Source of the DNA: an uncultured Alphaproteobacteria bacterium
GTDB lineage: Bacteria; Pseudomonadota; Alphaproteobacteria; Rhizobiales; Beijerinckiaceae
Length of the DNA: 64,000 bases
Direction of reading: 5' to 3'
NCBI GenBank assembly: GCA_963715715.1
Contig: OY970269.1
Location: 1,688,797 to 1,752,796 of the forward strand
Positions 2,230-61,787 of this stretch are shown in pieces; the stretch's first letter is position 1, and each line of letters opens with the position of its first letter. Position numbers and translations under genes: made by a program. The notes under the pieces were generated by a model, which worked only from the letters and a program-made list of their open reading frames with translations, did not search any database and had not been told where the DNA came from.

Positions 2230-2456
2230 AAGTCGCCCGGCGCCGGAAACCGCGCGTTCAGCTAGAAACAAAAGTAATGCTGTGGGTGCGACAATAGATT
2301 GTCGCGCGCGGGGTCGACAAATCGCGCAAGTTGCACTATGTAGAATTTATGTCGCCGGCGCCGCTTTTTCATCAGAGGCGCCGCTGACGTAAGGTTCCGC
2401 TCCGGAACGCTTTGAGACGCAGCGCGGCCGGACCGGGACAATCGCAGGAGACGGTT

Positions 2457-3939
2457 ATGGATGCCGCGGGCCAATCCGATCCGGACCAATCGGAAGTTTG
2501 GACGGATCTCGACCTGGACGCCGATCGCCTGCGCGAAGAATGCGGCGTGTTCGGCATTTTCGGCCATCCCGACGCCGCCGCTATCACCGCGCTCGGGCTT
2601 CACGCCCTCCAGCATCGCGGCCAGGAAGCCGCCGGCATCGTCTCCTTCGACGGGCGGCGCTTCAATTCAGAGCGCCGCCTCGGCCTCGTCGGCGATCATT
2701 TCTCCAAAGCCTCGACGATCGAGCGACTGCCGGGCGAGTCCGCGATCGGCCATGTCCGCTATTCGACCACCGGCGAGACCATTCTGCGCAATGTCCAGCC
2801 ACTCTTCGCCGAACTGAATTCCGGCGGCTTCGCCGTCGCCCACAACGGCAATCTCACAAACGGCCTGACCCTGCGCCGCGATCTCGTCCACGAGCGGCGC
2901 GATCTATCAGTCGACCTCCGATACCGAAGTCATCCTGCATCTGTGGCGCGCAGCCGCCGCCCGCGCATCGTCGAGCGCTTCATCGAGGCCCTGCGCGCAG
3001 ATCGAAGGCGCCTACGCTCTCGTCGCCCTCTCCAACAACAAGCTGATCGGCGCCCGCGATCCGCTCGGCATCCGCCCGCTGGTGATCGGCGAACTCGACG
3101 GCCATTATATCCTCGCCTCGGAGACCTGCGCGCTCGACATCATCGGCGCGCGCTTCGTCCGCGACGTCGAAAACGGCGAAATCGTCGTCATTTCGAAAGA
3201 GGGCGTCGAGAGCCTGCGGCCCTTCCCGCCGCGCCCGATGCGGCCCTGCATCTTCGAATATATCTATTTCGCGCGGCCCGACTCCATCGTGCACGGCCGC
3301 CCCGTCTATGATGTGCGCAAGGCCATGGGCGCCGAGCTCGCGCGGGAAGCCGGCGTCGAAGCCGACGTCGTCGTGCCGGTCCCCGATTCCGGCGTGCCCG
3401 CCGCGATCGGCTATGCGCAGGCTTCGGGCATTCCGTTCGAACTCGGCATCATCCGCAACCATTACGTCGGGCGCACCTTCATCCAGCCGACCCAGTCCGT
3501 GCGCGAATTGGGCGTGCGACTGAAGCACAGCGCCAACCGCGCCGTCGTCGCGGGCAAGCGCATCATCCTCATCGACGATTCCATCGTGCGCGGCACGACC
3601 TCCGTCAAGATCGTGCAGATGATGCGCGAGGCCGGCGCGCGCGAAGTGCATTTCCGCATTTCCTCGCCGCCGATCACCCATCCCGATTATTACGGCATCG
3701 ACACGCCGGAGCGCGAAAAGCTGCTCGCCGCGACCCATACGCTCGACGAGATGCGCGACTATATCGGCTGCGATTCGCTGGCCTTCCTCTCGGTCGACGG
3801 CATTTATCGCGCCATGGGCGAAAACGGGCGCGACCCGGTGCGGCCGCAATTCACCGACCATTGCTTCACCGGCGACTATCCGACCCACCTCACCGATCTC
3901 ACCGGCGAAACCAAAAGCGCAGCTCTCGCTGCTCGCTGA
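2457..3939 (+). CDS. purF: Amidophosphoribosyltransferase (three apparent single-base indels at about 2895-3000)
   Basis: Propeptide then CGVFG, QHRGQE, GHVRYST, HNGNLTN; C-terminal PRT motif LIDDSIVRGTT and DHCFTGDYP; split across reading frames. Confidence 0.93.
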
Positions 3940-4214
3940 AGCCAGTTAGATCCCTTTGCTGTAATCCCGGCGCTGCGTCGCATCCCGCAATTCGGCGGCG
4001 AAGTCGAGCGCCGCCTTACACAGTGAACATCGACCGGGTCGCGGGAATAGCCGACACCGCGCCATGGGGATCGACGATTTCCATGAGCGGCTGCTTGCGA
4101 CGGCGTCAGACGATCCTCGCTTGATCCGCGGACAAGATTGATCACTGCGATTTCCGATTTCGCCGAACCGCTTTAACTTCGCAGCCTTCTCGCGCACCGG
4201 GCACAAGACCCATC

Positions 4215-4967
4215 ATGCCAGCTACCCTTCACGGCCGCGTCGCTCTCGTCACGGGCGCCTCGCGCGGCATCGGCCGCGCCGTGGCTCTCGAACTTGCGCG
4301 GGCAGGCGCGCACATCATCGCCCTCGCCCGCACGCAGGGCGCCCTTGAGGATCTCGATGACGCGATCCGCGCGGAAGGCGGCGAGGCGGCGACCGTCACG
4401 CCTTGCGACGTCAAGGATTTCGACGCGCTCGACCGGCTCGGCGCGGCGATCTTCGCGCGCTGGGGCAAGCTCGACATTCTGGTCGGCAACGCTGGCGCGC
4501 TGGGGCCTGTCACGCCGCTTGGCCATGTCGAGCCGCGCCAATGGGACGACACATTCGCGGTCAACGTAACCGCCAACTGGCGGCTCATCCGTTCGCTCGA
4601 TCCGCTGCTGCGCGCTTCCGACGCGGGCCGCGCTGTGTTCCTCACGGCGGGCGTCGCCCACGCTGCTATCATCCCGCCATATTGGGGACCCTACGCCGCT
4701 TCGAAAGCCGCGCTCGAAGCGCTGGTGCGCACCTATGCGGCGGAGACGCGAAACATCACCCCGGTCCGGGTGATGGCCGTCAATCCGGGGCAGATCCGCA
4801 CAAAGATGCGGGCGCAGGCCATGCCAGGCGAAAATCCTATGATTTTGAGAACGCCAGAAGAGCTCGCGCCCAAAATCGCCGCCATCTGCTCGCCCGAATG
4901 GACCGAGACCGGCAAGCTTTATGACTTTCCACAAGACCGCGTGTTACGATTTTCTGAGCCAAACTGA
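4215..4967 (+). CDS. SDR family oxidoreductase (YciK-like)
   Basis: TGASRGIG Rossmann motif, YAASK catalytic motif; usual neighbour of purF in this group. Confidence 0.88.
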   Translation: MPATLHGRVALVTGASRGIGRAVALELARAGAHIIALARTQGALEDLDDAIRAEGGEAATVTPCDVKDFDALDRLGAAIFARWGKLDILVGNAGALGPVTPLGHVEPRQWDDTFAVNVTANWRLIRSLDPLLRASDAGRAVFLTAGVAHAAIIPPYWGPYAASKAALEALVRTYAAETRNITPVRVMAVNPGQIRTKMRAQAMPGENPMILRTPEELAPKIAAICSPEWTETGKLYDFPQDRVLRFSEPN

Positions 4968-5048
4968 GACGGATCGCGCGGGATCGCCAGCGAGCCCGAC
5001 GTCCGTGAATCCGCGGCGCGTTGCCGCGCAATTGCAAAGGCGCCCCAA

Positions 5049-5729
5049 ATGGAATTTCGCTCGATCCTCGGCGCTTGCTTCGCCTTTTCCATTCTGGCTG
5101 GGGCAACCGCCGCCGAAGACCATGCGCCGACATGGACCGCGAGTTTCACGACGCGCGTCGAAGCTCTCGCCTTGCTCCAGACCCTCAGCGCCGAGCTGGC
5201 CGTCAATGACAGCGCGACCCTGACGCTCGATCATTGGTGCGAAGAGCACCGGCTCGCCTCGCCGGCGAAGATCGTCGCCGAAAAGGTCGCGGGAGCGGAC
5301 CAGCCGCCGACGCCGGAGACGCGCAAGCTGCTCAACATCGACGAAGCCGAACCGGTCCGCTATCGCAGGGTGCGGCTTGCCTGCGGCCAACATATTCTGT
5401 CGGAAGCGGACAATTGGTACGTGCCCGCCCGCCTGACGCCAGAGATAAATGGCGCGCTGGAGACCACAAACGTCGCCTTTGGGCGGGCCGTGCAGCCGCT
5501 GCATTTCCAGCGTCACACGCTGGAGGCGACGCTGATATGGTCGCCGCTTCCGGCAGGCTGGGAAATGGGCGCGGCGGCGCCACAAGCGGACAGCAAACCT
5601 CTCGAGATTCCACACATCGTGCTCGAGCATCGCGCCGTCCTTACCCTGCCCGACGGCACGCCATTCAGCGAAGTGGTCGAGCGCTACACGAGTGAAGTAC
5701 TCGCCTTCCCGCCGCCGACCGAACCGTGA
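5049..5729 (+). CDS. Conserved hypothetical protein with signal peptide, possibly chorismate-lyase (UbiC/UTRA)-like fold
   Basis: Hydrophobic N-terminus ending AxA; VRYRRVRLACG..LSEADNWYVP and FGRAV segments recall UbiC-like motifs. Confidence 0.55.
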   Translation: MEFRSILGACFAFSILAGATAAEDHAPTWTASFTTRVEALALLQTLSAELAVNDSATLTLDHWCEEHRLASPAKIVAEKVAGADQPPTPETRKLLNIDEAEPVRYRRVRLACGQHILSEADNWYVPARLTPEINGALETTNVAFGRAVQPLHFQRHTLEATLIWSPLPAGWEMGAAAPQADSKPLEIPHIVLEHRAVLTLPDGTPFSEVVERYTSEVLAFPPPTEP

Positions 5730-5767
5730 CGCGAGCCGGGGAAAGTTTTCAACCCGAACTCCAAGCC

Positions 5768-7888
5768 TCAGAGATCTATCGCGACCACGGTCGTCATCAA
5801 CCTTCTCGGCTCGGCGCTGAAGCCGACCGAAAACTGAAATTCGCCGGGCTCGAAACAGGGTTTCAGATCGGCGCCCGGAAAGCCCAACTCGGCGCCGGGA
5901 AGCGCGAAATCGACGACGTCCGTCTCGCCAGGCCGCAGCGCGATCTTCTTAAATCGCTTCAGTTCAAGCACCGGCCGCGCGATCGACGCGACGAGATCGC
6001 GCGCAAACAGAAAGACGGTCGCCTCGCCGTCCATCGGTCCTTCATTGGCGACGTCGACGCTGAACCGGATCATATCGGCGAAACTGAAATCCCGCTGCAG
6101 GGCGCGAAAATTCGACAGCGCGAAGCGGCTATAGGACAGACCATGTCCGAACCAGAACTGCGGCTCGACCGAAATATCGAGATATTTGCTGGTGTAGGGG
6201 TCGGCGGGGTCGAACGGCCGCCCCGTCGGCCGAACGGCATAAAAGATCGGAATCTGGCCGACCGCGCGCGGCCAGGTGACCGGCAGCCGTCCGATCGGAT
6301 TGAAGCGGCCGGTCAGAACATCGGCGATGGCGCTCCCCGCCTCGGCGCCGAGGAACCATGTCGCGACCACCGCCGCGGCGCCTTCGAAGAGCCAGGGCAG
6401 CGTGAGCGGACGTCCACTGGACAGAACCGCGACGACGGGCTTGCCAAGGCCGAGCGCGGCCATTGCGAGGGCCTTCTGGCGGCCGGGCAGCCCAAGATCG
6501 GCGCGCGAGGCCGCCTCCCCGCTCATCGCGGCGGCTTCGCCGAGGCAAAGCAGGATGAGATCGACGCCGCAGGCGATTGCGAGCGCGGCCGGAATTTCTG
6601 AGTCGTCCTCGCCGTCGATGCCGACGCCCTCGGCGAAAAGGATTTCCGCCTGCGGCAACGCGCGCTGCAAACCGTCGAGGATGGAGACGCTATCCTCGCG
6701 GTCGGCCCCCATCGCCCATGGCCCCTGCATCTCACGTTTGGCGGCGGCGAGGGGACCGATGACGGCAATCTTGCGCAAATTCGCCGACAACGGCAGCGCG
6801 CCGTCGTTTGTGAGCACCACAATGGAGCGTCGCGCCGCGACGCGGGCGAGTTCGCGGGCCGCTGTGGCGGATTCGCCGCCGCCCATGCGGCGAAAGGCGT
6901 CGTCGAAGAGGCCGAGCCGCTGCTTCAGCGTCAGCACGCGGCGAACGCTGGCGTTGACGTCGGCGATTGATACGCGCCCCTCGGCGAGCGCCTGCGGCAG
7001 CCCCTGGCGAAAGGCGCCGCCCATCATGTCGATATCGACGCCGGCTTTCAGCGCCAGCGCGGCGGCTTCGCAAAGATCGGCGGCGACGCCATGGCGCAGC
7101 AGTTCGACGATCGAATTGTAATCGCTGACGACAACGCCGTCGAAGTCCTGTTCGCCGCGCAGCCAGCCGCAAAGTAGCGCCCGGTGCGCGGTCATGGGCA
7201 CGCCGGCGAGGTCCATGAAGGCCGGCATAATCGCGGCGCAGCCGGCTTTGAGCGCCGCCTCGAAGGGCGGCAGATAGACCTCGCGCAGCGTTCGCTCGGA
7301 AACGTCGGCGGAGGCGTAGTCGCGCCCGGCCAGAGCCGCGCCATAGGCGCAAAGATGCTTGGCCGTGGCGGCGACGGCGTCGCCAAGTGTGAGATCGTCG
7401 CCCTGGAAGCCCTGCACCTTGGCCCGCGCGAATTCGGCCGTGACATAAGGGTCCTCGCCCGCGCCCTCGGCGATGCGGCCCCAGCGCGGATCGCGCGCGA
7501 CGTCGAGCATCGGCGCGAAAACCATCGAAACTCCGTCGTGCGCGGCTTCCGCGGCCGCCGCCCGGGCCGTCGCCGCCCAAAGCTGCGGATCGAAGGCGGA
7601 GGCTTCGCCAAGCGGAATTGGAAATATGGTCCTGTGCCCATGCAGCACATCGAGGCCGATCAACAGAGGAATGCCAAGGCAACTCTCCGCGGCCGTCCTC
7701 TGGATCGCGCGCACCGCCTCAGCGCCCCAAAGGTTCAAAAGCGAGCCGACGCGCCCAGCGCGGACGTCGGCGCTGACGTCAGCGCAAACGGACGGCCCAG
7801 TCACCGCATAGCCGCCGGAGGCCATGGTGAGCTGGCCGATCTTCTCCTCCAGCGTCATGGCTGCGATGAGCCCGGCGATCCTATCCAT
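5768..7888 (-). CDS. bglX: GH3 beta-glucosidase (BglX-like)
   Basis: MTLEEKIGQL, DVLHG, RDPRWGR, KH, VVSDY nucleophile motif, GEAAAMSGEA, C-terminal fibronectin-III segment; RBS AGGGAG before ATG at 7888. Confidence 0.9.
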   Translation of the reverse strand: MDRIAGLIAAMTLEEKIGQLTMASGGYAVTGPSVCADVSADVRAGRVGSLLNLWGAEAVRAIQRTAAESCLGIPLLIGLDVLHGHRTIFPIPLGEASAFDPQLWAATARAAAAEAAHDGVSMVFAPMLDVARDPRWGRIAEGAGEDPYVTAEFARAKVQGFQGDDLTLGDAVAATAKHLCAYGAALAGRDYASADVSERTLREVYLPPFEAALKAGCAAIMPAFMDLAGVPMTAHRALLCGWLRGEQDFDGVVVSDYNSIVELLRHGVAADLCEAAALALKAGVDIDMMGGAFRQGLPQALAEGRVSIADVNASVRRVLTLKQRLGLFDDAFRRMGGGESATAARELARVAARRSIVVLTNDGALPLSANLRKIAVIGPLAAAKREMQGPWAMGADREDSVSILDGLQRALPQAEILFAEGVGIDGEDDSEIPAALAIACGVDLILLCLGEAAAMSGEAASRADLGLPGRQKALAMAALGLGKPVVAVLSSGRPLTLPWLFEGAAAVVATWFLGAEAGSAIADVLTGRFNPIGRLPVTWPRAVGQIPIFYAVRPTGRPFDPADPYTSKYLDISVEPQFWFGHGLSYSRFALSNFRALQRDFSFADMIRFSVDVANEGPMDGEATVFLFARDLVASIARPVLELKRFKKIALRPGETDVVDFALPGAELGFPGADLKPCFEPGEFQFSVGFSAEPRRLMTTVVAIDL

Positions 7889-8238
7889 CGGCCGCTCCCT
7901 TGCGCGCGATATGTTGACCGGCCCCGGACGCGCCGGGGCTGGCGCAAATGGAAGCCCTGACCATGTTAGGCGTTCAAATGTCCGCCGACAAATCGGCGCC
8001 GTGCTTGAGCTTCGCCCGCGCCGCAACGGCGGACACCCGCGGAGAGTTTCGCCCGAATCAAGATGATCGAGATCGACCCCGCCCGCGCCGCGTTTCCCGC
8101 ATCACAATGTTTTCCGCGGATAATTCGCCAAAGCCATGCCTGCTTTTACGATTGGATCATGCGTTAAGTGGCGAAATGGAGCGTGATTGAGATTAAAAGG
8201 GGAACTTCCGCGCCGCTTGCGAGCGAAGCTTTGGGCCG

Positions 8239-10053
8239 ATGATGGACCAGGACAATAAACAGGCCGCAACCGACCCACGTCAGGACGGCTTTGCGGCTCA
8301 ACTCGTGATGATGATCCGCGCCCTCATCGCCTCGCCGGAGCGCCACCAGTTCTTTTTGCTCGCCTTCGCCATATGCACCGTGGTCGCGGCGACCGCCTTC
8401 GGCCAGATTCGGCTCAACGCGTGGAACCAGCCGTTTTACAACTCGCTTGCGCATAAGGATCGCGCCGAATTCCTGCACCAGCTCTGGGTCTTCACCCTGA
8501 TCGCCAGCGGCCTCCTCATTTTGAACGTCGCACAGACCTGGCTCAACCAAATGACCCGGGTCAAGCTGCGCGGGCGGTTGACGGGCGATCTGATTGATCT
8601 CTGGCTCGGGCCGACGCGCGCGTTCCGCCTCGCCAACGCAGGCGAGATCGGGGTAAATCCCGACCAGCGCATTCACGAGGATGTGCGCCACCTTGTCGAT
8701 CTGACGACCGATCTCGGCATCGGCCTTTTGCAGGCGACGCTTCTACTCGCCTGTTTCATCGGCGTTCTCTGGATGCTGTCCCAGGGCATGACGTTCTCGC
8801 TCTTTGGCCGGCGCTTCTCGGCGCCAGGCTATATGGTCTGGACCGCGCTGGTCTACGCCGGCGGCGCGTCCTGGATGAGCTGGCGCGTCGGCCACCCGCT
8901 GATCGGCCTCAACGCCGAACGCTACGCGCGCGAAGCTGACCTGCGTTCGGCTCTCGTGCGCGCCAACAACGGCACCGACGCCATCGCCTTCTACGGCGGC
9001 GAGGCGGACGAAAGGCAGCGTCTGCGCCAGGAGCTCGAGCCGGTGCTCGCCGTCATGCGTCGCCTCGTCACCGGCCTTACGCGGCTGACCTGGGTCACGG
9101 CCGGCTATGGCTGGTTCGCGATCGTCGCGCCGATCGTCGTCGCCGCGCCCGGATTTTTCAGCGGCGATTTGTCGTTCGGCGAATTGATGATGGTGGTCGG
9201 CGCCTTCAATCAGGTGCAGCAGGCGCTGCGCTGGTTCGTCGACAATTTCAGCACCATCGCCGACTGGCGCGCGACGCTGCTGCGGGTTGCGACCTTCCGC
9301 CGCGCGCTGCTCGACATCGACAATCTCGGCGACGGCGCGCGCCGCATCGAACTCATCGCCGCGCCGGACGAGCGACTGGAGTTCGACGATCTCGCCGTCG
9401 CGTCGCCCGCCGCCTGCACGAGGCTCAGCGAGCGCCATGTGACGATCCTGCCAGGCGAGCGCGTTTTGATCATCGCCCGTCGCGGAGCGGGGAGGACCAA
9501 TTTCTTCAGCGCTGTCGCCGGGCTCTGGCCCTGGGGGTCGGGCCGCATCGCGCGGCCGGCGGGCCAAACCATGATGTTCATGTCGCAGAGTCCCTATCTG
9601 CCGGCGGGAAGCCTGCGCGCGGCGCTCGCCTATCCCTCGGCCGTCGCGGCCTTCCCGGACGAAGCCTTCGCCAGGTCGCTGGAGCGCATGGGATTGTCCC
9701 ATCTCGAGCCGGAGCTTGACCGCGGCCCGCGCTGGGGCCGCGAACTCAGCGGTGATGAGCTGCAGAAGCTCGCCTTCGCGCGGCTGCTGCTGCACAGGCC
9801 GCGCTGGGTCCTGATCAATGGACCCCTCGACTCGCTCGACGAGGAAAACCGTGCGCTCGCGCTCGACATTTTCTCCCTGGAGCTGGCCGATGCGGCCATC
9901 CTCAATCTCGGCCGGACGGATGTGCAGAGGGGATTCTTCACGCGCGTCCTGCACCTCATCGATGACCCCACCGGGGAACGGCTCGCCGTCCTCCCGAGTC
10001 CGCTGGAGGAGCCGCCCGTCAAAGCGGCGTCGGACGCAGATTTGTTCAGCTAG
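8239..10053 (+). CDS. YddA/ABCD (SbmA/BacA-related) ABC transporter permease-NBD fusion with degenerate ATPase motifs
   Basis: LNAWNQPFYN, NPDQRIHED, EADLRSALVR membrane-domain motifs; Walker A reads ARRGAGRT, Walker B WVLING, H-loop LGR. Confidence 0.82.
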   Translation: MMDQDNKQAATDPRQDGFAAQLVMMIRALIASPERHQFFLLAFAICTVVAATAFGQIRLNAWNQPFYNSLAHKDRAEFLHQLWVFTLIASGLLILNVAQTWLNQMTRVKLRGRLTGDLIDLWLGPTRAFRLANAGEIGVNPDQRIHEDVRHLVDLTTDLGIGLLQATLLLACFIGVLWMLSQGMTFSLFGRRFSAPGYMVWTALVYAGGASWMSWRVGHPLIGLNAERYAREADLRSALVRANNGTDAIAFYGGEADERQRLRQELEPVLAVMRRLVTGLTRLTWVTAGYGWFAIVAPIVVAAPGFFSGDLSFGELMMVVGAFNQVQQALRWFVDNFSTIADWRATLLRVATFRRALLDIDNLGDGARRIELIAAPDERLEFDDLAVASPAACTRLSERHVTILPGERVLIIARRGAGRTNFFSAVAGLWPWGSGRIARPAGQTMMFMSQSPYLPAGSLRAALAYPSAVAAFPDEAFARSLERMGLSHLEPELDRGPRWGRELSGDELQKLAFARLLLHRPRWVLINGPLDSLDEENRALALDIFSLELADAAILNLGRTDVQRGFFTRVLHLIDDPTGERLAVLPSPLEEPPVKAASDADLFS

Positions 10054-10059
10054 GGCGCG

Positions 10060-10326
10060 TCAATAGTAGTGGCGATGATAATAGTGATGGTGGTGGTGAT
10101 GATAATAAGGCCTGCCGACTACGCCTCTCACGCCACCGACGACGCCGCCAGTGACGCCGCCGACCACGCCGCCAACCGCGGCGCCGACCGGACCGGCGAC
10201 ATGCCCGCCCTCGGCCGCGCCATGCTGGGCGCCGCCGACGACGCCCTGCGCCTGCACTGTGCAAGGCATTGAAAGAAGGGCGAGAACGCCAGCGAGGCCG
10301 AGGCCTCTTGTTAATCGGATGATCAT
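10060..10326 (-). CDS. Small secreted Gly/Val-rich protein with His/Tyr-rich C-terminus
   Basis: RBS GGAGG before ATG at 10326; signal peptide; GVVGG repeats; tail RPYYHHHHHHYYHRHYY. Confidence 0.7.
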   Translation of the reverse strand: MIIRLTRGLGLAGVLALLSMPCTVQAQGVVGGAQHGAAEGGHVAGPVGAAVGGVVGGVTGGVVGGVRGVVGRPYYHHHHHHYYHRHYY

Positions 10327-10763
10327 TGGCAACCTCCATGAGACGAACGAATTGAAGCCCGCAGGAACGCGATAGAACCACTCTCGGGCGTCGACCAACT
10401 CGGGGAGGCGATCAAAGGTTGCTATTTTAACCGACCTGTTTTGGCGATCTTTGTGATTCACGCGACAAACGCCAAAAACCTCAAGCTACGCCGTCAGCAT
10501 GCTCCCTCATAGCGCGCGCCGCGCGCCAGCGCTTGGCCACTTTTTCTTGGAGCCGGCGCGGCGAACCTCGCACACTTGAGCACCCCGCCTGTCATCAATT
10601 AGTAATATTCCCCAAAGCGTAAGCTAGTCACCCCTAGGTTACCCGCTTGTGTGCGGCCAATTCGTTATCCGTAGGCAAATGTTCGACGACGACGCGTCCC
10701 GAAGCATATGATATTCGCTCAGGTCAAGGCGAGGGGAGAGCTTTTATCTTAAAGCGTCAATGC

Positions 10764-10777
10764 TTGACCCTGATCAA
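10764..10777. promoter_or_regulatory. Candidate FixK/Fnr box
   Basis: TTGAC-CCTG-ATCAA versus consensus TTGAT-N4-ATCAA, about 90 nt upstream of hsp20. Confidence 0.55.
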
Positions 10778-10866
10778 AACCGAGGGCAAATTCGAAGACT
10801 AGTCTTGCGCGCGGCGGCGCGCCTTGACCTCCCGCGCAAGGCGACAGCCTGAAATGGAGCCAAGCC

Positions 10867-11373
10867 ATGCCACTTTTGCCAAGCCTCAGGACCAGAAGCC
10901 AAAGCCTCGCCGATCCCTTCGCGGCGATCAGGCGCGATCTCGACTCGTTCTTCTCCGATTATGGTCGGGATTTCCCGGCGCTCGCCGAAGTCGGCGCGCG
11001 CATCCCCGCGCTGAACATCGCCGAGACGCCGGACGCGGTCGAGATCACCACCGAACTCCCGGGCGTCGATGAGAAAGACATCAACGTCAGCCTCGACGGC
11101 AACCGCCTCGTCATCTCCGGCGAGAAGAAGCTCGAGAGCGACCGCAACGACAAGGAATGGCGCGTCGTCGAGCGCAGCTACGGCGCGTTCCATCGCGCCA
11201 TCGCCCTGCCCTTCGAGCCGAAGGAAAGCGCGGTCGCGGCGCATTTCGATAAGGGCGTGCTGCACGTCAAGGTCAGCAAGCCGTCCGAATCCGCCAAAGA
11301 GAAAAAATCGATCGAGATCAAGGCCGGCCCGCCGGCGGCTTCTGCTCCCGGCGAGGCCTCAAAGGCGGCCTGA
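10867..11373 (+). CDS. Hsp20/alpha-crystallin small heat-shock protein
   Basis: ELPGVDEKDI, ERSYGAFHRAIALP, FDKGVL and IEI tail motifs. Confidence 0.93.
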   Translation: MPLLPSLRTRSQSLADPFAAIRRDLDSFFSDYGRDFPALAEVGARIPALNIAETPDAVEITTELPGVDEKDINVSLDGNRLVISGEKKLESDRNDKEWRVVERSYGAFHRAIALPFEPKESAVAAHFDKGVLHVKVSKPSESAKEKKSIEIKAGPPAASAPGEASKAA

Positions 11374-11454
11374 TTCTCTCTGCGCTCCCGCGGCGGAGGC
11401 GGTTTCGAGGATGCGAAATCCGCTCGACTCAGCCGGATTTCGCGAACGCACTAA

Positions 11455-11483
11455 AATGCTGCGCAACAATGCTGCGCAGCATT
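11455..11483. promoter_or_regulatory. Direct repeat plus perfect 16-bp palindrome, candidate operator (PhaR-like)
   Basis: AATGCTGCGCA at 11455 and 11468; AATGCTGCGCAGCATT (11468-11483) is self-complementary. Confidence 0.4.
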
Positions 11484-11671
11484 CCCGCGCAGCGATCCTG
11501 CGCGGGCGACGCAGACATCGAACCGCACGCAAACCCTCGAATAATACGTGGGTAAAGTCGCCGTCGCGCTTGCTCTGCCCGCGGCGCCGGCCTTTACTTC
11601 CGCCCAGCGGTTGTGGGGAAAGCGCCCGCCTCGCCGTCAGCGAACGGGCCGCGGCGAGGAGAAAATCTTCA

Positions 11672-12931
11672 TTGACGAGGCCCCAGCCTCAGCGCCTCTC
11701 GGATGATGCGCTGCTCGATCTCGTGCAGCGGCGGACCTTCGCCTTCTTCTGGGAAGGCGCCCACCCGGTCAGCTTTCTCGCTCGCGACCGCACCGGCCTT
11801 GACGCCGACCCGCAAGACGATCTCGTCTCCGTCGGCGGCTGCGGCTTCGGCGTCATGGCCATCATCGTCGCCGTCGCGCGCGGATGGATCGGACGCGCCG
11901 CGGCGGTCGAAAGGCTGACCGCCATGCTCGCTTTCCTCGAACGCACGCCCGCCTATCACGGCCTCTTTCCGCATTTCCTCGATGGGCGCACCGGCGCGAC
12001 CATTCCCTTCGGCCGCAAGGATGACGGCGGCGACATCGTCGAGACCGCCTTCCTGTTTCAGGGCCTGCTCTGCGCGCGCCAATTCTTCGATGCAGACGCC
12101 CCCGGCGAAAAGCGCCTGCGTGACCGCGTCACCTGGCTGTGGAGCGAAGTTGAATGGAGCTGGCACACGCAGGGCGGCCGCAAGGTCCTGACCTGGCACT
12201 GGAGCCCGAACAACGGCTTCGCCCTCGACCATGAGGTGCGCGGCTGGAACGAGTGCCTCATCGCCTATGTGCTGGCGGCCGCCGCGCCGCGCTATTGCAT
12301 CGACCCCGCCGCCTATCATGGCGGCTTCGCGCAGAGCCGCACTTTCATCAATCGCCGCAGCTTCTATGATCTCGAATTGCCGCTCGGACCCGATTTCGGC
12401 GGGCCGCTGTTCTTCGCGCATTATTCCTTCTGCGGCCTCGATCCGCGCGGCCTTGTCGACGACTACGCCGATTATTGGCGCCAGAACGTGCAGCACGTCT
12501 TGATCAACTATGAACATTGCGCGCGCAACCCGCATGGCCACAAGGGCTATGGCCCGTCCTGCTGGGGCCTCTCCGCGAGCGACGATCCCGCCGGCTACCG
12601 GACGCATGCGCCCGACCACGACAATGGCGTCATCTCGCCGACCGCCGCCCTGTCGAGTTTTCCTTACGCGCCGGAGCAGGCCATGCGCGCGCTGCGCCAT
12701 TTCCACGATGATCTCGGCGAGCGCATCTGGGGCCGCTTCGGCTTCGTCGACGCGTTCAGCGAAGGGCACGGCTGGCGCGCCGAGAGCTATCTCGCGATCG
12801 ACCAGGGACCGATCGTGGCGATGATCGAGAACCACCGCAGCGAACTGTTATGGAATCTCTTCATGGCCGATCCAGACGTGCGGCGGGGCCTCGCGCGGCT
12901 CGGCTTCAAATCGCCCCATCTGAGCGCCTGA
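11672..12931 (+). CDS. Glucoamylase-family (PF10091-type) protein, GH144 endo-beta-1,2-glucanase-like
   Basis: LTWHW, WNECLIAY, GGPLFFAHYSFCGLDP, WGLSASD, SPTAA, GFVDAF, AIDQGP motifs; TTG start after AGGAGA. Confidence 0.82.
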   Translation: MTRPQPQRLSDDALLDLVQRRTFAFFWEGAHPVSFLARDRTGLDADPQDDLVSVGGCGFGVMAIIVAVARGWIGRAAAVERLTAMLAFLERTPAYHGLFPHFLDGRTGATIPFGRKDDGGDIVETAFLFQGLLCARQFFDADAPGEKRLRDRVTWLWSEVEWSWHTQGGRKVLTWHWSPNNGFALDHEVRGWNECLIAYVLAAAAPRYCIDPAAYHGGFAQSRTFINRRSFYDLELPLGPDFGGPLFFAHYSFCGLDPRGLVDDYADYWRQNVQHVLINYEHCARNPHGHKGYGPSCWGLSASDDPAGYRTHAPDHDNGVISPTAALSSFPYAPEQAMRALRHFHDDLGERIWGRFGFVDAFSEGHGWRAESYLAIDQGPIVAMIENHRSELLWNLFMADPDVRRGLARLGFKSPHLSA

Positions 12932-12932
12932 C

Positions 12933-14312
12933 GTGGGGCCTTCCGGCGACGATCTCGGCCGCTGGATGGCGCGCCAATATGCGCTCTCCACCAAAGCCAT
13001 GCTCGGCGCAATTTCGCGGACCGATCTCGTCAAGACGCGCCACGGCTTCGGCCGCCTGGTGCGCCCGGCGAAAGGCTCAATTCTCGCGTCGCCGGTTATG
13101 GCGGCTTACGATCCCGATCCTGATTATTTCTTCCACTGGCTGCGCGATTCCGCGGTCGTCATCGACGCGCTGCGCTGTCTCGTCGACGACGGCGCCGTCG
13201 CCCGAGGGAAGGGTCTCGAAGTCTTCAGGGATTTTCTCGCCTTCAGCCTTGCTGTTTCATCGCTCGACGGCCGCGGCTTCCTCGCAAAAGCGGGCGATTT
13301 CCGGTCGAAGGTCGAGCCGGATTTTCTGCAGTTTCTGCGTCCAGACGACGAAATCCGCGCGCTCGCAGGCGATGATGTTCTCGGCGAGCCGCGATTTGAC
13401 CCGGACGGCTCGATCGATATTCTGAAATGGTCGCGGCCCCAGCATGACGGACCGGCGCTGCGCGTCCTTACTGTGCTCAAATTCCGTTCCATCGCGGCGG
13501 CCGATACGGAGGCGGCCGCGCTGGCGGACGAACTTTTGCGCCGCGATCTCGGCTTTACGCTGGCGCGTTGGCGAACGCCCTCCTTCGACATCTGGGAAGA
13601 AGAACTGGGCCGCCACTATTATACGCAGCTCGTGCAGTGCGAAGCTTTAGCGCAGGGCGCGCAATGGCTGGACAGGATCGGCGATCCCCGTAGGGCGGAG
13701 GACTGCCGCGAGGCGGCGCGGGAGATCGAGGCTGAGCTGCAGGACTATTGGAGCGAGGCGCGGGGCTTTACCCGCAGCCGGATCGGCGGCGACAGTGAAA
13801 AGGAACTCGACATCGCGACGCTGCTCGCCATGGTCCATGCCGGACGCGGCGCGGGGTCTCATAGCGTCAGCGATCCGAAGGCGCTCGCCACCGCGCGGCG
13901 GCTGGAGGATTTGTTCGCGAGCCTCTATAAGATCAACCGGCAGACGCCGACAGGCCGCGCGCCGGCGATGGGCCGCTATGCGAACGATCGCTATTATAGC
14001 GGCGGCGCCTATTATTTCTCGACGCTCGGCGCGGCGGAGTTTTACTACAAGGCGGCGGCGGCTTCGCGGACCTTTGCGGGTTTGCATGACGATAGTCATA
14101 TAAATTCGTTCGACGCATTTTTTCGACGCGGAGACATGTTCATGGCGACGGTTGCGGCATTTACGCCGGATAGCGGCGACCTTTCCGAGCAGTTCGACCA
14201 GACGAGCGGCGCCCAGAGTTCGGCGAAAAACCTCGCCTGGAGCCATGCGGCCTTGATCACCGCCTGTTCGAGCCGCGCCGCCGCGCTTCGACCCGGAGGC
14301 CCCGCGCCATGA
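12933..14312 (+). CDS. GH15 glucoamylase (glucan 1,4-alpha-glucosidase)
   Basis: YFFHWLRDSA, WSRPQHDGPALR, FDIWEE (acid), LSEQFD (base), LAWSHAA motifs. Confidence 0.85.
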   Translation: MGPSGDDLGRWMARQYALSTKAMLGAISRTDLVKTRHGFGRLVRPAKGSILASPVMAAYDPDPDYFFHWLRDSAVVIDALRCLVDDGAVARGKGLEVFRDFLAFSLAVSSLDGRGFLAKAGDFRSKVEPDFLQFLRPDDEIRALAGDDVLGEPRFDPDGSIDILKWSRPQHDGPALRVLTVLKFRSIAAADTEAAALADELLRRDLGFTLARWRTPSFDIWEEELGRHYYTQLVQCEALAQGAQWLDRIGDPRRAEDCREAAREIEAELQDYWSEARGFTRSRIGGDSEKELDIATLLAMVHAGRGAGSHSVSDPKALATARRLEDLFASLYKINRQTPTGRAPAMGRYANDRYYSGGAYYFSTLGAAEFYYKAAAASRTFAGLHDDSHINSFDAFFRRGDMFMATVAAFTPDSGDLSEQFDQTSGAQSSAKNLAWSHAALITACSSRAAALRPGGPAP

Positions 14313-15208
14313 TCGACAAGCTCGAATTCCTGCTGGCGCTGGCCCGCGAGCGCAATTTCAGCCGCGCCGCGGAAAGCTGCGGCGTCACCCAGCCAACGCT
14401 CTCGGCCGGCATCAAGCAGCTCGAGGACAGCCTCGGCGTTCTGCTCGTCAACCGCAGTTCCCGCTTTCACGGCCTCACCGCCGATGGCGAACGCGTGCTT
14501 GAATGGGCGAAGCGCATCGTCAGCGACACGCGCGCGATGCGCCAGGAAGTCCGCTCGCCCAAGGCCGCGCTCGTCGGCCATCTGAGCATCGCCGCCGTGC
14601 CGACAGCGGCCGCCATGGCGACGCAGCTGACGACGCCTTTCCGCGAGAAGCATCCCGAGGTGCGCTTCACCATCCTCTCGCAGACCTCGCGCGAAATCCT
14701 CGCCATGCTCGACGGCCTCCAGATCGATGCCGGCCTCACCTATCTCGACAATGAGCCGCTTGGGCAAATCCGCACGCTGCCGCTCTATTGGGAGCGCTAC
14801 CGGCTGCTCACTTCGGCGCATCTGCCGCTCGGCGACCGCGCCAGCGTAACCTGGAAGGAGGTGGCGCAAATCCCGCTCTGCCTGCTGACGCCTGACATGC
14901 AGAACCGCCGCATCATCGACCGCCTTCTCGGCGGCGGCGCGCCGCCGCATCCGCCGATGCTGGAATTGAATTCCATGGTGGTTCTCGCCGCCCACGTTCG
15001 CACCGGACTGTGGTCGAGCATCATCCCCGAGACCTTCGCCGAGGTGCTCGGCCTCAGCGAACCGCTGCGCTCCATACCGATCGTCGAACCGCAGGAGGTG
15101 CAAAGGATCGGCCTCGTGCTGCCGCGCCGCGAGCCGATGCCGCCGCTGACCCGCGCCCTTGTCGCCGAGGCGAACCGCCTCGCTTTGCCCGAGGAAGCCG
15201 ACGCGTGA
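14309..15208 (+). CDS. LysR family transcriptional regulator
   Basis: N-terminal HTH FSRAAESCGVTQPTLSAGIKQLE; ATGA overlap with the upstream stop. Confidence 0.92.
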   Translation: MIDKLEFLLALARERNFSRAAESCGVTQPTLSAGIKQLEDSLGVLLVNRSSRFHGLTADGERVLEWAKRIVSDTRAMRQEVRSPKAALVGHLSIAAVPTAAAMATQLTTPFREKHPEVRFTILSQTSREILAMLDGLQIDAGLTYLDNEPLGQIRTLPLYWERYRLLTSAHLPLGDRASVTWKEVAQIPLCLLTPDMQNRRIIDRLLGGGAPPHPPMLELNSMVVLAAHVRTGLWSSIIPETFAEVLGLSEPLRSIPIVEPQEVQRIGLVLPRREPMPPLTRALVAEANRLALPEEADA

Positions 15209-59675: not shown

Positions 59676-61787
59676 ATGCATGTTCTCGCCGCCGTCGTCG
59701 CCATCTTCTCCGTCGCCACCGCGGTCATCGGCGCGACGCATGAAGACGGGATCATCCTGCTCCTCGCCGCGACCGGCCTGCTGTGCGCCTACACCACCTA
59801 TCAAACGCCGAAAATCTCCAGCTTCCTGCGCATCTTCGCGGCGATCTTCGCGATTGAGACGGTCCTCTTCGGCGTCGTCTTCCTGATTGCGCAGGTCGGC
59901 CTTTGGCCCGCCTCGCTGCAGGATTACGCGCTGCCCGAAAGCCTGCCGCTGACCGTCGCGATCTTCGCCATTCTCGTCTATGCGATCTCCTTCGTCCCCG
60001 TCGTGCGGCAGATGACGCGCATCGGCGACCGCTATTTCGACTTCGCGGGACCGACCACGGCGCGCATCAAGCCCTTGCCGTCCTTCAGCATCGACGAGCG
60101 CGTGCTCGCGATCGCGATGGTCGTCTTCCTCGTCGTCGTCAATCAGGCGCAGGTCGGCATGCAGCTTCGGCTGTCCTTCTTCTCGCGCGACTGGTTCAAC
60201 GCGATCCAGAACAAGGATCAGGCGACATTTTGGTCGCAATTGTTCGCTGTCTTCATCCCATGGGCGTTCATCTATATCTGCTCGGCGATTCTCGAATTCA
60301 TCATCGCCTCGACCCTGATCATCCGCTGGCGGCGCTGGCTGACCGAGGACTACGTCGGCCGCTGGCTCGATCGCCACACGCACTACCGGATGTCGCTCGG
60401 CGGCGGCGCCGACAACCCCGACCAGCGCATCTCCGAGGACGTCAACCGCTTCATCAACGGCGGCGAAACCGGCGGCTACGGCATTTACTCTTTTTCGATC
60501 CTGCTCATCTCGACGTTGAGTTCGCTGGTGTCGTTCTCAATTCTGCTGTGGGTGCTCTCGGCCAATTTCACCCTGCCCTATACGACGATCGCCTTCCCCG
60601 GCTTCCTGTTCTGGGTCGCGCTGATCTACGCCGGCGTCGGCACCTGGGTCACCCATCTCATCGGCGGTTCGCTGGTTCAGCTCTCCTTCACGCGGCAGCG
60701 CTATGAGGCCGACTTCCGTTTCTCGCTGGCGCGCTTACGCGAATACGCCGAGCAGGTCGCGCTGCTGAAGGGCGAGAATTCGGAAAAACATTCGCTGCGC
60801 GAGCGCTTCGCCGCCATCATCGGAAATTATTTCCAGATCGTCGCCGTGCGCAAAAACCTGATCGGCTTCACCTCCTTCTACGGACAGCTGAGCCCGATCA
60901 TTCCCTATATCGTCGCGGCGCCGTTTTACTTCGCCGGCAAGATCACCCTCGGCGTGATGACGCAGACCGCGCGCGCCTTCGGCAGCGTCAACGAAGCGCT
61001 GACCTTCTTCGTCAATTATTACGTCTCGCTCGCCGATTTCAAAGCCGTGCTCGATCGCCTCACCTCCTTCGATTCCTCGATCGAGGCGGCGCAGAAGCCC
61101 GCCGAAGCCGCGGCGTCCGCCGCCGCGGCGGACGCCGGCGCGCACGAGCATATCGGCCTCGAAACCGTGACGGTGCGCCTGCCCGACGGGCGCGTCATCC
61201 TCAAGGATGCGACGCTGCGCCTCGCCGCGCGGGAATCGACGCTGGTCAGCGGCCCCTCCGGCTCCGGCAAATCGACCCTGCTTCGCACCATCTCCGGCAT
61301 CTGGCCGTTCGGCGACGGCGCCGTCGCCAAGCCCGCCGACGCGAGCGTGATGCTGCTGCCGCAAAAGCCTTATATTCCGATCGGCGCTCTCATCGCCGCC
61401 GTCACCTATCCGGCCCCGCCCGAGACCTATGGCGAAGACGCCGTGCGCGCCGCCCTTCGCTCTGCGAACCTGCCCGACCTCGTCGACCAGCTGCATGTCG
61501 AGGACAATTGGGGACAGCGCCTTTCGGGCGGCGAAACGCAGCGCCTCGCCATCGCCCGCGCATTGCTGGCGAAGCCCGACTGGCTGTTTCTCGACGAGGC
61601 GACGACGGCGCTCGACGAAGCCATGGAGGCGAAAATCTACGGCGTTCTGTTCACCGAACTGCACGGGACGACGATCGTCTCGATCGGCCATCGCTCGAGC
61701 CTGCTCGATATCCACCAGCGTCACATCGAGCTGCAGCCGGACGGCGCCGGCGGTTCGAAAATCTCAGAGAAGACGGTCGTCGCTTGA
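59676..61787 (+). CDS. YddA/ABCD family ABC transporter permease-ATPase with extended membrane N-terminus
   Basis: DNPDQRISED, EADFRFSLAR, GPSGSGKST, LSGGETQR, LFLDEAT, SIGHR all intact. Confidence 0.88.
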   Translation: MHVLAAVVAIFSVATAVIGATHEDGIILLLAATGLLCAYTTYQTPKISSFLRIFAAIFAIETVLFGVVFLIAQVGLWPASLQDYALPESLPLTVAIFAILVYAISFVPVVRQMTRIGDRYFDFAGPTTARIKPLPSFSIDERVLAIAMVVFLVVVNQAQVGMQLRLSFFSRDWFNAIQNKDQATFWSQLFAVFIPWAFIYICSAILEFIIASTLIIRWRRWLTEDYVGRWLDRHTHYRMSLGGGADNPDQRISEDVNRFINGGETGGYGIYSFSILLISTLSSLVSFSILLWVLSANFTLPYTTIAFPGFLFWVALIYAGVGTWVTHLIGGSLVQLSFTRQRYEADFRFSLARLREYAEQVALLKGENSEKHSLRERFAAIIGNYFQIVAVRKNLIGFTSFYGQLSPIIPYIVAAPFYFAGKITLGVMTQTARAFGSVNEALTFFVNYYVSLADFKAVLDRLTSFDSSIEAAQKPAEAAASAAAADAGAHEHIGLETVTVRLPDGRVILKDATLRLAARESTLVSGPSGSGKSTLLRTISGIWPFGDGAVAKPADASVMLLPQKPYIPIGALIAAVTYPAPPETYGEDAVRAALRSANLPDLVDQLHVEDNWGQRLSGGETQRLAIARALLAKPDWLFLDEATTALDEAMEAKIYGVLFTELHGTTIVSIGHRSSLLDIHQRHIELQPDGAGGSKISEKTVVA

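Follow-up and report, generated by a model that had tools for sequence, protein, structure and literature searches.

A half-ABC transporter with a conserved, catalytically degenerate nucleotide-binding domain beside beta-1,2-glucan hydrolase genes in Alphaproteobacteria

Within the window, as the 64,000-nucleotide stretch of DNA analysed here is termed, one gene encodes a type IV (YddA/BclA/Rv1819c-like) half-ABC transporter whose nucleotide-binding domain (NBD) is folded, under purifying selection and degenerate in its catalytic motifs. The degenerate state is conserved in a large clade of homologues, the protein being maintained by selection in many soil bacteria, and at most of the clade loci examined the gene is accompanied by genes for beta-1,2-glucan hydrolases. 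The reading preferred here, to which we give about an even chance of being correct, is that the protein forms a homodimer in the inner membrane and imports beta-1,2-glucans with no need of ATP hydrolysis.

An intact half-transporter with degenerate catalytic motifs

The transporter protein scored 130.1 bits against PF06472 (cut-off 24.4) and its membrane domain scored 76 bits against the SbmA/BacA-type profile PF05992. The top PDB sequence match was Rv1819c (6tqe, E 1.3e-61), with an alignment extending through residue 562, and 6tqe_A was also the top Foldseek match (TM 0.75). The AF2 model had a pLDDT of 82.4 overall and of ~85-94 across the NBD, and D142, Q143 and R144 of the NPDQR loop motif in the membrane domain, together with D148, were invariant. 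The first-pass annotation had described the reading frame and membrane domain as intact, as is borne out here. The NBD, in contrast, was barely at the cut-off of 25 for PF00005 (ABC_tran), with 25.3 bits as against 62.8 bits for the canonical paralogue (Table 1). Some source annotations name such proteins BacA-type vitamin B12/bleomycin/antimicrobial peptide ATP-binding/permease; BacA-type ATP-binding/permease names carried by apparently ATPase-dead proteins constitute an annotation problem.

Table 1. Features of the transporter locus and of the paralogue, in window coordinates.
Feature	Position	Strand	Basis
GH3 beta-glucosidase, divergent; likely start MDRIAGL; without signal peptide; conserved cluster	5768..7888	-	Pfam, PDB, synteny
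604-aa half-ABC transporter gene (ABC_membrane_2/SbmA_BacA membrane domain and degenerate NBD)	8239..10053	+	Intact ORF, Pfam
Membrane domain, residues ~18-366: short N-terminal helix, then six long helices; NPDQRIHED intracellular-loop motif	8290..9336	+	PF06472 130 bits, AF2
NBD fold, residues ~371-580, folded, catalytically degenerate	9349..9978	+	AF2, PF00005
Walker A, ARRGAGRT (Gly1>Ala, Lys>Arg)	9475..9498	+	Pairwise and multiple alignment
Q-loop glutamine Q450, retained	9586..9588	+	Alignments
Signature LSGDE, degenerate (second Gly>Asp)	9745..9759	+	Pairwise and multiple alignment
Walker B, WVLING, degenerate (Asp>Asn, catalytic Glu>Gly)	9805..9822	+	Pairwise and multiple alignment
D-loop SLD, retained	9832..9840	+	Multiple alignment
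H-loop position, LGR (His>Arg)	9907..9915	+	Multiple alignment
GH144-type endo-beta-1,2-glucanase homologue (Pfam Glycoamylase); start codon uncertain; without signal peptide	11630..12931	+	PF10091 251 bits
GH15 glucoamylase-like hydrolase, last enzyme of the cluster	12933..14312	+	Pfam, synteny
LysR-type regulator, overlapping the GH15 stop codon	14309..15208	+	Sequence
Canonical paralogue, 703 aa; only other PF06472 gene in the genome and only conceivable same-family partner	59676..61787	+	Pfam, BLASTP

BLASTP and multiple alignment placed the motifs of the window protein opposite GPSGSGKST, LSGGE, LFLDEA and SIGHR of the paralogue, and neither a canonical Walker A (GxxGxGK[ST]) or Walker B (hhhhDE), nor an LSGGQ-type signature, nor the H-loop His was present in the window protein. 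The altered Walker A and Walker B of the first-pass annotation thus lie exactly where it had placed them, its altered signature and H-loop are confirmed as well, and the paralogue, which keeps every motif, is sound as the internal control proposed there. The wording of the first-pass annotation that all catalytic motifs are altered was, however, too broad: it stands for these four motifs, whereas the Q-loop glutamine and the D-loop are kept. The ATPase site is probably systematically dead, and the window NBD probably cannot hydrolyse ATP.

Conservation and selection across the degenerate clade

The K>R, D>N, G>D and H>R replacements were common to the closest orthologues, from independent assemblies and at 66-84% identity, and the Walker A Arg was present in 17/17 of the nearest orthologues, encoded by AGG, CGG or CGT. 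Because independent assemblies share the replacements with different Arg codons, the changes are not the product of chance or read error, in agreement with the earlier statement that several coordinated substitutions were unlikely to be read errors. Canonical motifs in the orthologues had been named as the sign of recent decay or error; instead the closest orthologues share the degenerate motifs, and these are conserved under purifying selection, with dN/dS in close pairs (Nei-Gojobori) of 0.08-0.19 for the NBD versus 0.05-0.16 for the membrane domain. Two segments were near-invariant, GLWPWGxGRI after Walker A and PYxPxGxLR after the Q-loop. A read error or pseudogene was thus ruled out by the orthologues, the codon usage and dN/dS.

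A recently inactivated relic heading for loss, or an assembly error, is likewise largely refuted and highly improbable. It would fit the terminal branch of the window gene, which is longer than those of its sisters (~2x faster in dN), the Walker B Glu>Gly change, seen in the window but in none of its 17 nearest relatives, and the insertion of two unrelated genes between the transporter and the GH144 gene. However, the 604-codon frame is intact, dN/dS between the window gene and four close relatives was 0.12-0.19 in both domains, and the degenerate state extends across a large clade, almost all of whose sampled copies retain intact frames. In the window, Glu>Gly/Ala>Pro takes at least three base substitutions and involves no frameshift. 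Since the fast terminal branch and Glu>Gly are found there alone, some extra relaxation in the window's own genome is possible.

In a tree of 205 rows built from the membrane domain only, the window gene fell inside a 101-row clade (support 94) nested in a clade of support 100. None of the 101 members had five or more of the six canonical catalytic residues, whereas the outer lineages were canonical and relatives at 47-50% identity had fully canonical, YddA-like NBDs. Parsimony over the whole 205-row tree gave 15 state changes for the Walker A Lys, 17 for the Walker B Asp, 22 for the Walker B Glu and 14 for the H-loop, and, judged from the sequences, there were numerous independent losses of catalytic residues inside the clade. 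The ratio of NBD to membrane-domain identity in the clade was ~0.70-0.77 at membrane-domain identities of 40-80% and 0.87-0.93 in closer pairs, as compared with ~1.0 in canonical relatives, a pattern of relaxed, though not lost, constraint on the NBD. The membrane domain is the better conserved half, also at the residues that correspond to SbmA gate and ladder positions. Within it, D117, H151, R331 and R354 are found specifically in the degenerate clade, H151 adjoining E147; the significance of these charged residues is suggestive only. When NBD-less derivatives were sought in the clade, the short or odd representatives had either chimeric ends or tails rich in Arg, Ala and Pro, such as frameshifted calls typically show. 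Homologues at ~52% identity are carried on Ensifer and Sinorhizobium megaplasmids, and the Ensifer adhaerens pA copy, the one whose motifs were read, is degenerate.

The NBD could be envisaged as still binding, and perhaps slowly hydrolysing, ATP or another phosphate ligand through its Arg-rich loop, so that the protein would be a primary or ATP-gated transporter. The replacement residues are themselves conserved, the Walker A Lys being Arg in each of the 17 nearest orthologues and the H-loop Arg being found across much of the clade, and the window protein keeps its Q-loop and D-loop. Most of the 101 rows of the clade carry Asp or Glu at the signature position (second Gly), and many members retain GxxGxGK[ST], with the Walker A Lys, together with the Walker B Asp. 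Those members may have retained ATP binding, and because of them the description "ATP-independent" is perhaps untrue for the whole clade. The window protein, however, lacks all of the following at once: Lys and the first Gly of Walker A, the Mg-binding Asp and catalytic Glu of Walker B, His of the H-loop and Gly of the signature. Its PF00005 score barely reaches threshold. Moreover, an E>G change in Walker B alone inactivates the homologue Rv1819c, as in its E576G mutant (PMC12713380), and the window protein has the same E>G naturally, plus four further hits. An ATP-using NBD in the window protein is thus very unlikely.

The question of a partner and the relation to SbmA/BacA

The first-pass annotation had also offered the protein as the inactive half of a heterodimer, in which the canonical paralogue would supply ATP hydrolysis as in TM287/288 or TmrAB. 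The paralogue is the sole other PF06472 gene in the genome, orthologues of both genes co-occurred in 8/8 Beijerinckiaceae-type genomes examined, and degenerate sites in known ABC exporters are always paired with one active site, taking a structural role in the heterodimers (PMC7756269). The kinds of substitution seen in the window protein, which remove the catalytic Glu, the His of the H-loop and the Gly of the signature, are also those of TM287/288, TmrAB, MsRv1273c/72c, CFTR and MRP1. In contrast to the window chain, however, on which all of these motifs are degenerate, systems of the TM287/288 type retain one consensus site that drives the cycle, and the asymmetry of known heterodimers is complementary. 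With Walker A, Walker B, signature and H-loop degenerate on the same chain, both composite sites of a heterodimer would be impaired. The paralogue is only 29% identical (BLASTP, E 5e-76), is encoded 50 kb away and has a ~140-aa N-terminal extension, and no second ABC gene that could encode an adjacent partner half-transporter was found in the cluster. Among 24 genomes, three (Consotaella salsifontis, Rhodobium orientis and a Rhodobium MAG) have a single PF06472 gene, that of the degenerate clade, and in the tandem pairs of the L014 lineage both copies are degenerate. A heterodimer with the paralogue is thus disfavoured and considered unlikely. Since its single chain is degenerate in Walker A, Walker B, signature and H-loop, a homodimer of the window protein would have no active site.

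Among known systems, Rv1819c, the Mycobacterium tuberculosis 'BacA' (PDB 6TQE/6TQF), is the nearest match by sequence and structure, with the same one-chain layout of membrane domain plus NBD and 27% identity to the window protein. Its fold is of the exporter type, and it imports large hydrophilic compounds. Rv1819c, however, has canonical motifs and requires ATP hydrolysis. BclA of Bradyrhizobium and YddA of E. coli belong to the same family and have the same domain order as the window protein, but their motifs are canonical, and glucan hydrolases are not reported next to either; transport by BclA depends on its ATPase (PMC12003926). E. coli yddA adjoins a TonB-dependent receptor gene, which is consistent with import.

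The origin of the proton-driven SbmA/BacA transporters from YddA-like ABC transporters is a question posed in 2026 (PMC13316013), and the window protein had been suggested as a possible intermediate. SbmA/BacA (the SLiPT family) and the window protein share their membrane-domain ancestry, and both are presumed free of ATP hydrolysis. SbmA has no NBD and no coupling helices; a TM0 domain is added, and its glutamate ladder of six residues is complete (PMC13316013). The window protein, in contrast, still has its NBD, which is folded, and the NPDQR loop, falls in a different clade and shows no additional N-terminal TM0 helices in its AF2 model, in which one short N-terminal helix precedes six core helices. 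Alignment of E. coli SbmA and YddA was used to place the ladder positions (E193, E203, E269, E276, E287 and E378 of E. coli SbmA) in the window protein. Only three of the six are acidic there: E147, E232 and D342 align to E193, E276 and E378, whereas T157, N225 and N243 replace E203, E269 and E287, at which E. coli YddA has L, N and N. Because these last three positions are not acidic, nothing positively indicates a proton relay like that of SbmA, and an SbmA-like ladder was rejected, only the incomplete, YddA-like set being present. The gene nests among YddA-like transporters with canonical relatives at 47-50% identity; thus the suggestion of an intermediate, in the genealogical sense, did not hold, and its loss of ATP hydrolysis is more aptly viewed as independent and parallel.

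The glucan hydrolase cluster and the proposed transport

The GH144 protein of the window matched the Chitinophaga endo-beta-1,2-glucanase 5gzh at 2.5e-142, and the GH3 protein matched PDB 5xxl at 3.6e-163 and Lin1840 at 7e-139, a strong homology from which specificity is not readable. A GH144 gene was found in the flank of 47/61 clade loci, usually with GH3 and GH15, and directly downstream of the transporter in 40 of the 61, whereas in the window the two inserted genes separate them. None of 12 canonical loci had GH144 near the transporter. Phylogenetically, the association of degeneracy with GH144 synteny amounts in essence to a single event and not to repeated independent ones. This linkage, which the first-pass annotation had missed, makes beta-1,2-glucans the candidate substrate. 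A canonical sister locus carries opgG, an opgH-like GT2, GH3 and GH15, related loci adjoin osmoregulation genes (opgGH and an MscS-type channel), and the window's genome has three opgG/D loci. A GH94-type match was marginal (24.3 bits in a 1081-aa frame), the opgG/D genes being present instead.

No N-terminal hydrophobic segment was found in the 35 GH3, 49 GH144 and 25 GH15 cluster genes checked, and the three enzymes of the cluster thus appear, from their sequences, to be cytoplasmic. No other transporter was found in the conserved cluster. With hydrolases that appear cytoplasmic and no other transporter in the conserved cluster, an importer would be needed. This bears on a further reading, namely a non-transporting membrane sensor or regulator, a pseudo-transporter from which the hydrolase cluster or the LysR protein would receive signals of glucan or osmotic status. 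ABC proteins with non-transport roles are known, SUR and CFTR among them; here catalysis is apparently gone with the fold conserved, a LysR gene whose putative product may regulate the cluster follows it, and the related loci lie beside opgGH and the MscS-type channel. A sensor is, however, quite unlikely, given the apparently cytoplasmic location of the three adjacent hydrolases and a membrane domain that is the more conserved half, down to the SbmA gate- and ladder-equivalent residues.

The beta-1,2-glucan transporters already known are the type I ABC importers Lin1841-1843 and Chy400_4166 and the exporter Cgt/NdvA. They follow the same cluster logic, with a transporter beside GH144/GH3-type enzymes, some of them cytosolic (PMC13731917). 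In contrast to these binding-protein-dependent type I importers, and to Cgt as an ATP-driven exporter, the window transporter is YddA-type and probably ATPase-dead. Degenerate NBDs were not found mentioned in the YddA/BclA/BacA literature searched, and the beta-1,2-glucan literature searched yielded no YddA-type or ATPase-dead transporter tied to these glucans.

In the glucan importer proposed here, for which gene context points to the substrate, the direction and the energy source, the material taken up from the periplasm would be osmoregulated periplasmic glucans, cyclic glucans or fragments, which would be passed to the three cytoplasmic hydrolases encoded alongside (GH144, GH3 and GH15-like). 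The folded NBD would be docked to the membrane domain without hydrolysing ATP, serving as a fossil in the role of a structural cytoplasmic gate or a dimerisation module of the presumed homodimer. As such an NBD would be unable to hydrolyse ATP, alternating access would be driven by a gradient, by protons or by both: a downhill substrate gradient could be sustained by cytoplasmic hydrolysis, protons could act via the acidic residues shared with YddA and SbmA (E147, E232 and D342), and the two drives might operate together.

More tentatively, it is possible that the whole alphaproteobacterial type IV clade has switched from ATP-driven transport to beta-1,2-glucan import independent of ATP hydrolysis, facilitative or proton-coupled, with the dead NBD kept by selection as a gate. 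The clade offers a graded natural series, from canonical through signature- and H-loop-only changes to fully dead, and a concrete candidate for the uptake of beta-1,2-glucans or OPGs into the cytoplasm, the transporters for which are termed poorly characterised (PMC13731917). A homodimeric half-transporter without an active site, kept by selection across many genera, would show the exporter fold running without ATP hydrolysis with its NBD still attached. If this proves true, the clade would be a living, independent replay of the transition from ABC to secondary transporter proposed for SbmA, and would supply the inner-membrane importer of beta-1,2-glucans hitherto missing from Proteobacteria.

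Catalytic motifs of the transporter and its closest relatives

The transporter is encoded by an uninterrupted frame of 604 aa, for which Pfam returned ABC_membrane_2 (130 bits), an overlapping SbmA_BacA match (76 bits) and an ABC_tran match that lay only at threshold (25.3 bits, cut-off 25), against 62.8 bits in the paralogue. The two proteins align at 29% identity (E 5e-76) and are the only family members encoded in this genome, a single 3.69-Mb contig. Motifs were placed by pairwise alignment with the paralogue and in a 121-sequence alignment. Walker A reads ARRGAGRT in the transporter and GPSGSGKST in the paralogue, the signature LSGDE and LSGGE, Walker B LING and LDEA, and the H-loop LGR and IGH, so that the paralogue is canonical at each of these positions and holds as the internal control proposed in the first-pass annotation. 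The annotation had further described all catalytic motifs as altered; the strings lie exactly where it placed them, but 'all' is a slight overstatement because the protein still has its Q-loop Gln (Q450) and an SLD D-loop. An AlphaFold2 model (68-sequence alignment) had a mean pLDDT of 82.4, about 85-94 across the nucleotide-binding domain (NBD), and the top PDB matches by sequence and fold were the full-length importer Rv1819c and ABCD transporters.

A search of 5.8 billion proteins yielded thousands of relatives. All of the 17 nearest, which come from independent assemblies of Methylocella-like Beijerinckiaceae and are 64-84% identical to the transporter across the aligned region, share the degenerate pattern: the first Walker A glycine is Ala, the Walker A lysine Arg, the second signature glycine Asp and the H-loop position Arg in every one, and the Walker B aspartate is Asn, Gln or, in one, Asp. 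The Arg codons vary by genome (AGG, CGG or CGT), and the Glu to Gly and Ala to Pro changes private to the window (GAG GCT to GGA CCC) comprise several substitutions without any shift of the reading frame. By the Nei-Gojobori method, pairs of close relatives (dS 0.25-0.77) gave a dN/dS of 0.08-0.19 for the NBD and 0.05-0.16 for the membrane domain; dS was moderately high for more distant pairs. On the window's own branch dN is about twice that of its sisters, yet far from neutral. The degenerate motifs, already judged unlikely to be read errors and here found conserved under purifying selection, are thus neither error nor decay. In one metagenome-assembled orthologue (L075, 73% identity) the frame is broken at around residue 400, which makes it either a true pseudogene or the product of an indel error in long reads; identity is lower for the GH144 and GH15 genes beside it.

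Positions and strands of the genes and loci discussed
Feature	Positions	Strand
GH3 beta-glucosidase, divergent	5768-7888	-
Transporter	8239-10053	+
Small secreted Gly/His-rich protein, lineage-specific insert	10060-10461	-
Hsp20, lineage-specific insert	10867-11373	+
Pfam 'Glycoamylase' protein	about 11630-12931	+
GH15 protein	12933-14312	+
LysR regulator	14309-15208	+
Paralogue	59676-61787	+
Split opgG/opgD-type gene, same genome	G000:C1:1439339-1440785	
L014, tandem transporter copies	3901-5898 and 5971-7824	
L075, interrupted orthologue	6001-7801	
L077, Microvirga locus	2327-9672	
L080, Pseudolabrys locus	4398-13746	

History of the degenerate domain

Trees (FastTree, 342 columns) were built from 79 genomic loci and representatives of 50%-identity clusters from 1.84 billion proteins, using the membrane domain only, which leaves the NBD states independent of the tree. 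The 101 sampled sequences of the transporter's clade (support 94, nested in a clade with support 100) include none that keeps at least five of the six catalytic residues. The outer lineages, at 47-50% identity and including Microvirga, Pseudolabrys and Tistlia, are fully canonical (GESGAGKST, LSLGQQQR, FMDEATSALDEE, SIGHRP). In clade members that branch early the losses are confined to three sites: the catalytic Glu is Asp, and the signature glycine and the H-loop His are gone. Walker A Lys and Walker B Asp disappeared later, in independent events, from lineages that include Kaistia, Roseiarcus, Consotaella and the subclade of the window's transporter. Parsimony over the whole 205-row tree counted 15 changes at Walker A Lys, 17 at Walker B Asp, 22 at the catalytic Glu and 14 at the H-loop. 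Degeneracy is a property of the clade and not of one gene.

Constraint on the NBD is relaxed and still present. The ratio of NBD identity to membrane-domain identity is about 1.0 among canonical relatives, whose two domains are equally conserved, and about 0.70-0.77 among degenerate-clade members that share 40-80% identity in the membrane domain. The NPDQR loop motif of the membrane domain is invariant, and segments after Walker A (GLWPWGxGRI) and after the Q-loop (PYxPxGxLR), together with the helix after the signature, are nearly so, a pattern which may mean that the NBD has kept both its core and its contact surface with the membrane domain.

The possibility that the transporter is the non-catalytic half of a heterodimer with the paralogue is weakened, though it keeps a small probability in this genome, by three observations: the degenerate motifs all lie on one chain, in three genomes the degenerate-clade gene is the family's sole representative, and both copies of a tandem pair in the L014 lineage are degenerate. 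This pair (also in genomes G022 and G024) sits within a GH3/GH144/GH15 cluster, and its upstream copy has diverged further than its partner (TGADCDKN, LPVKE, LFED). The paralogue itself carries an N-terminal extension of ~140 residues, with several hydrophobic helices before the ABC_membrane_2 domain, that is reminiscent of the additional TM0 helices in SbmA; its counterparts are conserved open frames of 708-742 aa in related genomes.

The glucan-enzyme neighbourhood

The 'Glycoamylase' protein matches a Chitinophaga endo-beta-1,2-glucanase (GH144, 5gzh) at 2.5e-142 and also the GH144 enzyme BDI_3064, and the GH3 protein matches 5xxl and Listeria Lin1840, which we take to be beta-glucosidases active on sophoro-oligosaccharides. 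Of 61 degenerate-clade loci, 47 have a GH144 gene in the flank, and in 40 this gene follows the transporter directly, on the same strand; none of 12 canonical loci has one. The association between degeneracy and GH144 amounts in essence to a single evolutionary event. GH144 at the degenerate loci is often joined by GH3 and GH15, and RefSeq annotation gives the same gene order on a Methylocystis plasmid. A hydrophobicity heuristic for signal peptides, applied to full upstream open frames, found no N-terminal hydrophobic segment above frame background in 35 GH3, 49 GH144 and 25 GH15 genes; the highest score, 1.93, fell within the frame of an adjacent gene, and two secreted controls scored 1.86 and 2.26. 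This indicates that the enzymes are probably cytoplasmic, in which case an importer would be needed. At L080, a sister locus with a canonical NBD, the flanks are GH15, opgG (MdoG), an opgH-like GT2 and GH3; on this gene content, the lineage's tie to periplasmic glucan metabolism seems to be older than the loss of ATPase.

Three opgG/D loci are present in the window's genome, in which no clear cyclic-glucan synthase turned up. One of the opgG/opgD-type genes is broken, possibly by a frameshift, into two adjoining frames that cover profile positions 1-213 and 212-478. The small gene and the Hsp20 gene form an insertion between the transporter and GH144. The small protein carries a clear signal peptide (MIIRLTRGLGLAGVLALLSMPCTVQAQG); its body is rich in glycine and valine, and its C-terminal tail reads HHHHHHYYHRHYY. 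No related locus has a counterpart of its gene. The LysR-family gene overlaps the GH15 stop codon and may control the cluster; DUF3422 and a KefB-like K+/H+ antiporter follow it. At L077 a canonical Microvirga relative has a gene for an MscS/MscK-type mechanosensitive channel on one side and one for a second ABC exporter, of MsbA/NdvA-like type, on the other; these neighbours hint at osmoregulation, and glucan hydrolases are absent. Megaplasmids of Sinorhizobium and Ensifer often carry homologues at ~52% identity, and most of their PLSDB records have no annotated gene under the match. The homologue on Ensifer adhaerens pA has a degenerate NBD (GAPEVEKA, LSEAE, H to R) and no GH144, GH3 or GH15 neighbours within 6 kb.

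A possible mechanism and the place among known transporters

A single E to G Walker B mutation inactivates Rv1819c (PMC12713380) and BclA requires its ATPase (PMC12003926), and by analogy ATP hydrolysis by the transporter is very unlikely. From the observed dead motifs, selection, fold and synteny we infer a substrate, direction, oligomeric state and energy source, in a model to which we give an even chance: a homodimer in the inner membrane would import beta-1,2-glucan material in a cycle without ATP hydrolysis, driven by an inward gradient that cytoplasmic hydrolysis would steepen, by proton coupling, or by both, and the dead NBD would be retained as a structural gate. Proton coupling finds no positive support among the SbmA ladder positions (defined in PMC13316013), three of six being acidic, the same three as in YddA.

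Beta-1,2-glucan importers on record are all of the type I binding-protein kind, the one exporter is Cgt, and uptake systems are termed poorly characterised (PMC13731917). Reviews of degenerate sites cover only transporters that retain one active site (PMC7756269), and we found no mention of the clade, its degeneracy or its glucan linkage in the YddA/BclA/BacA or beta-1,2-glucan literature. By membrane domain and NBD fold the transporter belongs to the YddA/BclA/Rv1819c family, but it lacks that family's catalytic motifs. SbmA is proposed to descend from a YddA-like ancestor whose NBD was first separated and later lost (PMC13316013). The earlier suggestion of an SbmA/BacA-like intermediate was not borne out in the genealogical sense, and the protein departs from the defining features of SbmA/BacA in that an NBD is present, the ladder is incomplete and TM0 is missing. 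Instead, the degenerate clade appears to be a lineage separate from SbmA, in which hydrolysis was given up and the domain kept.
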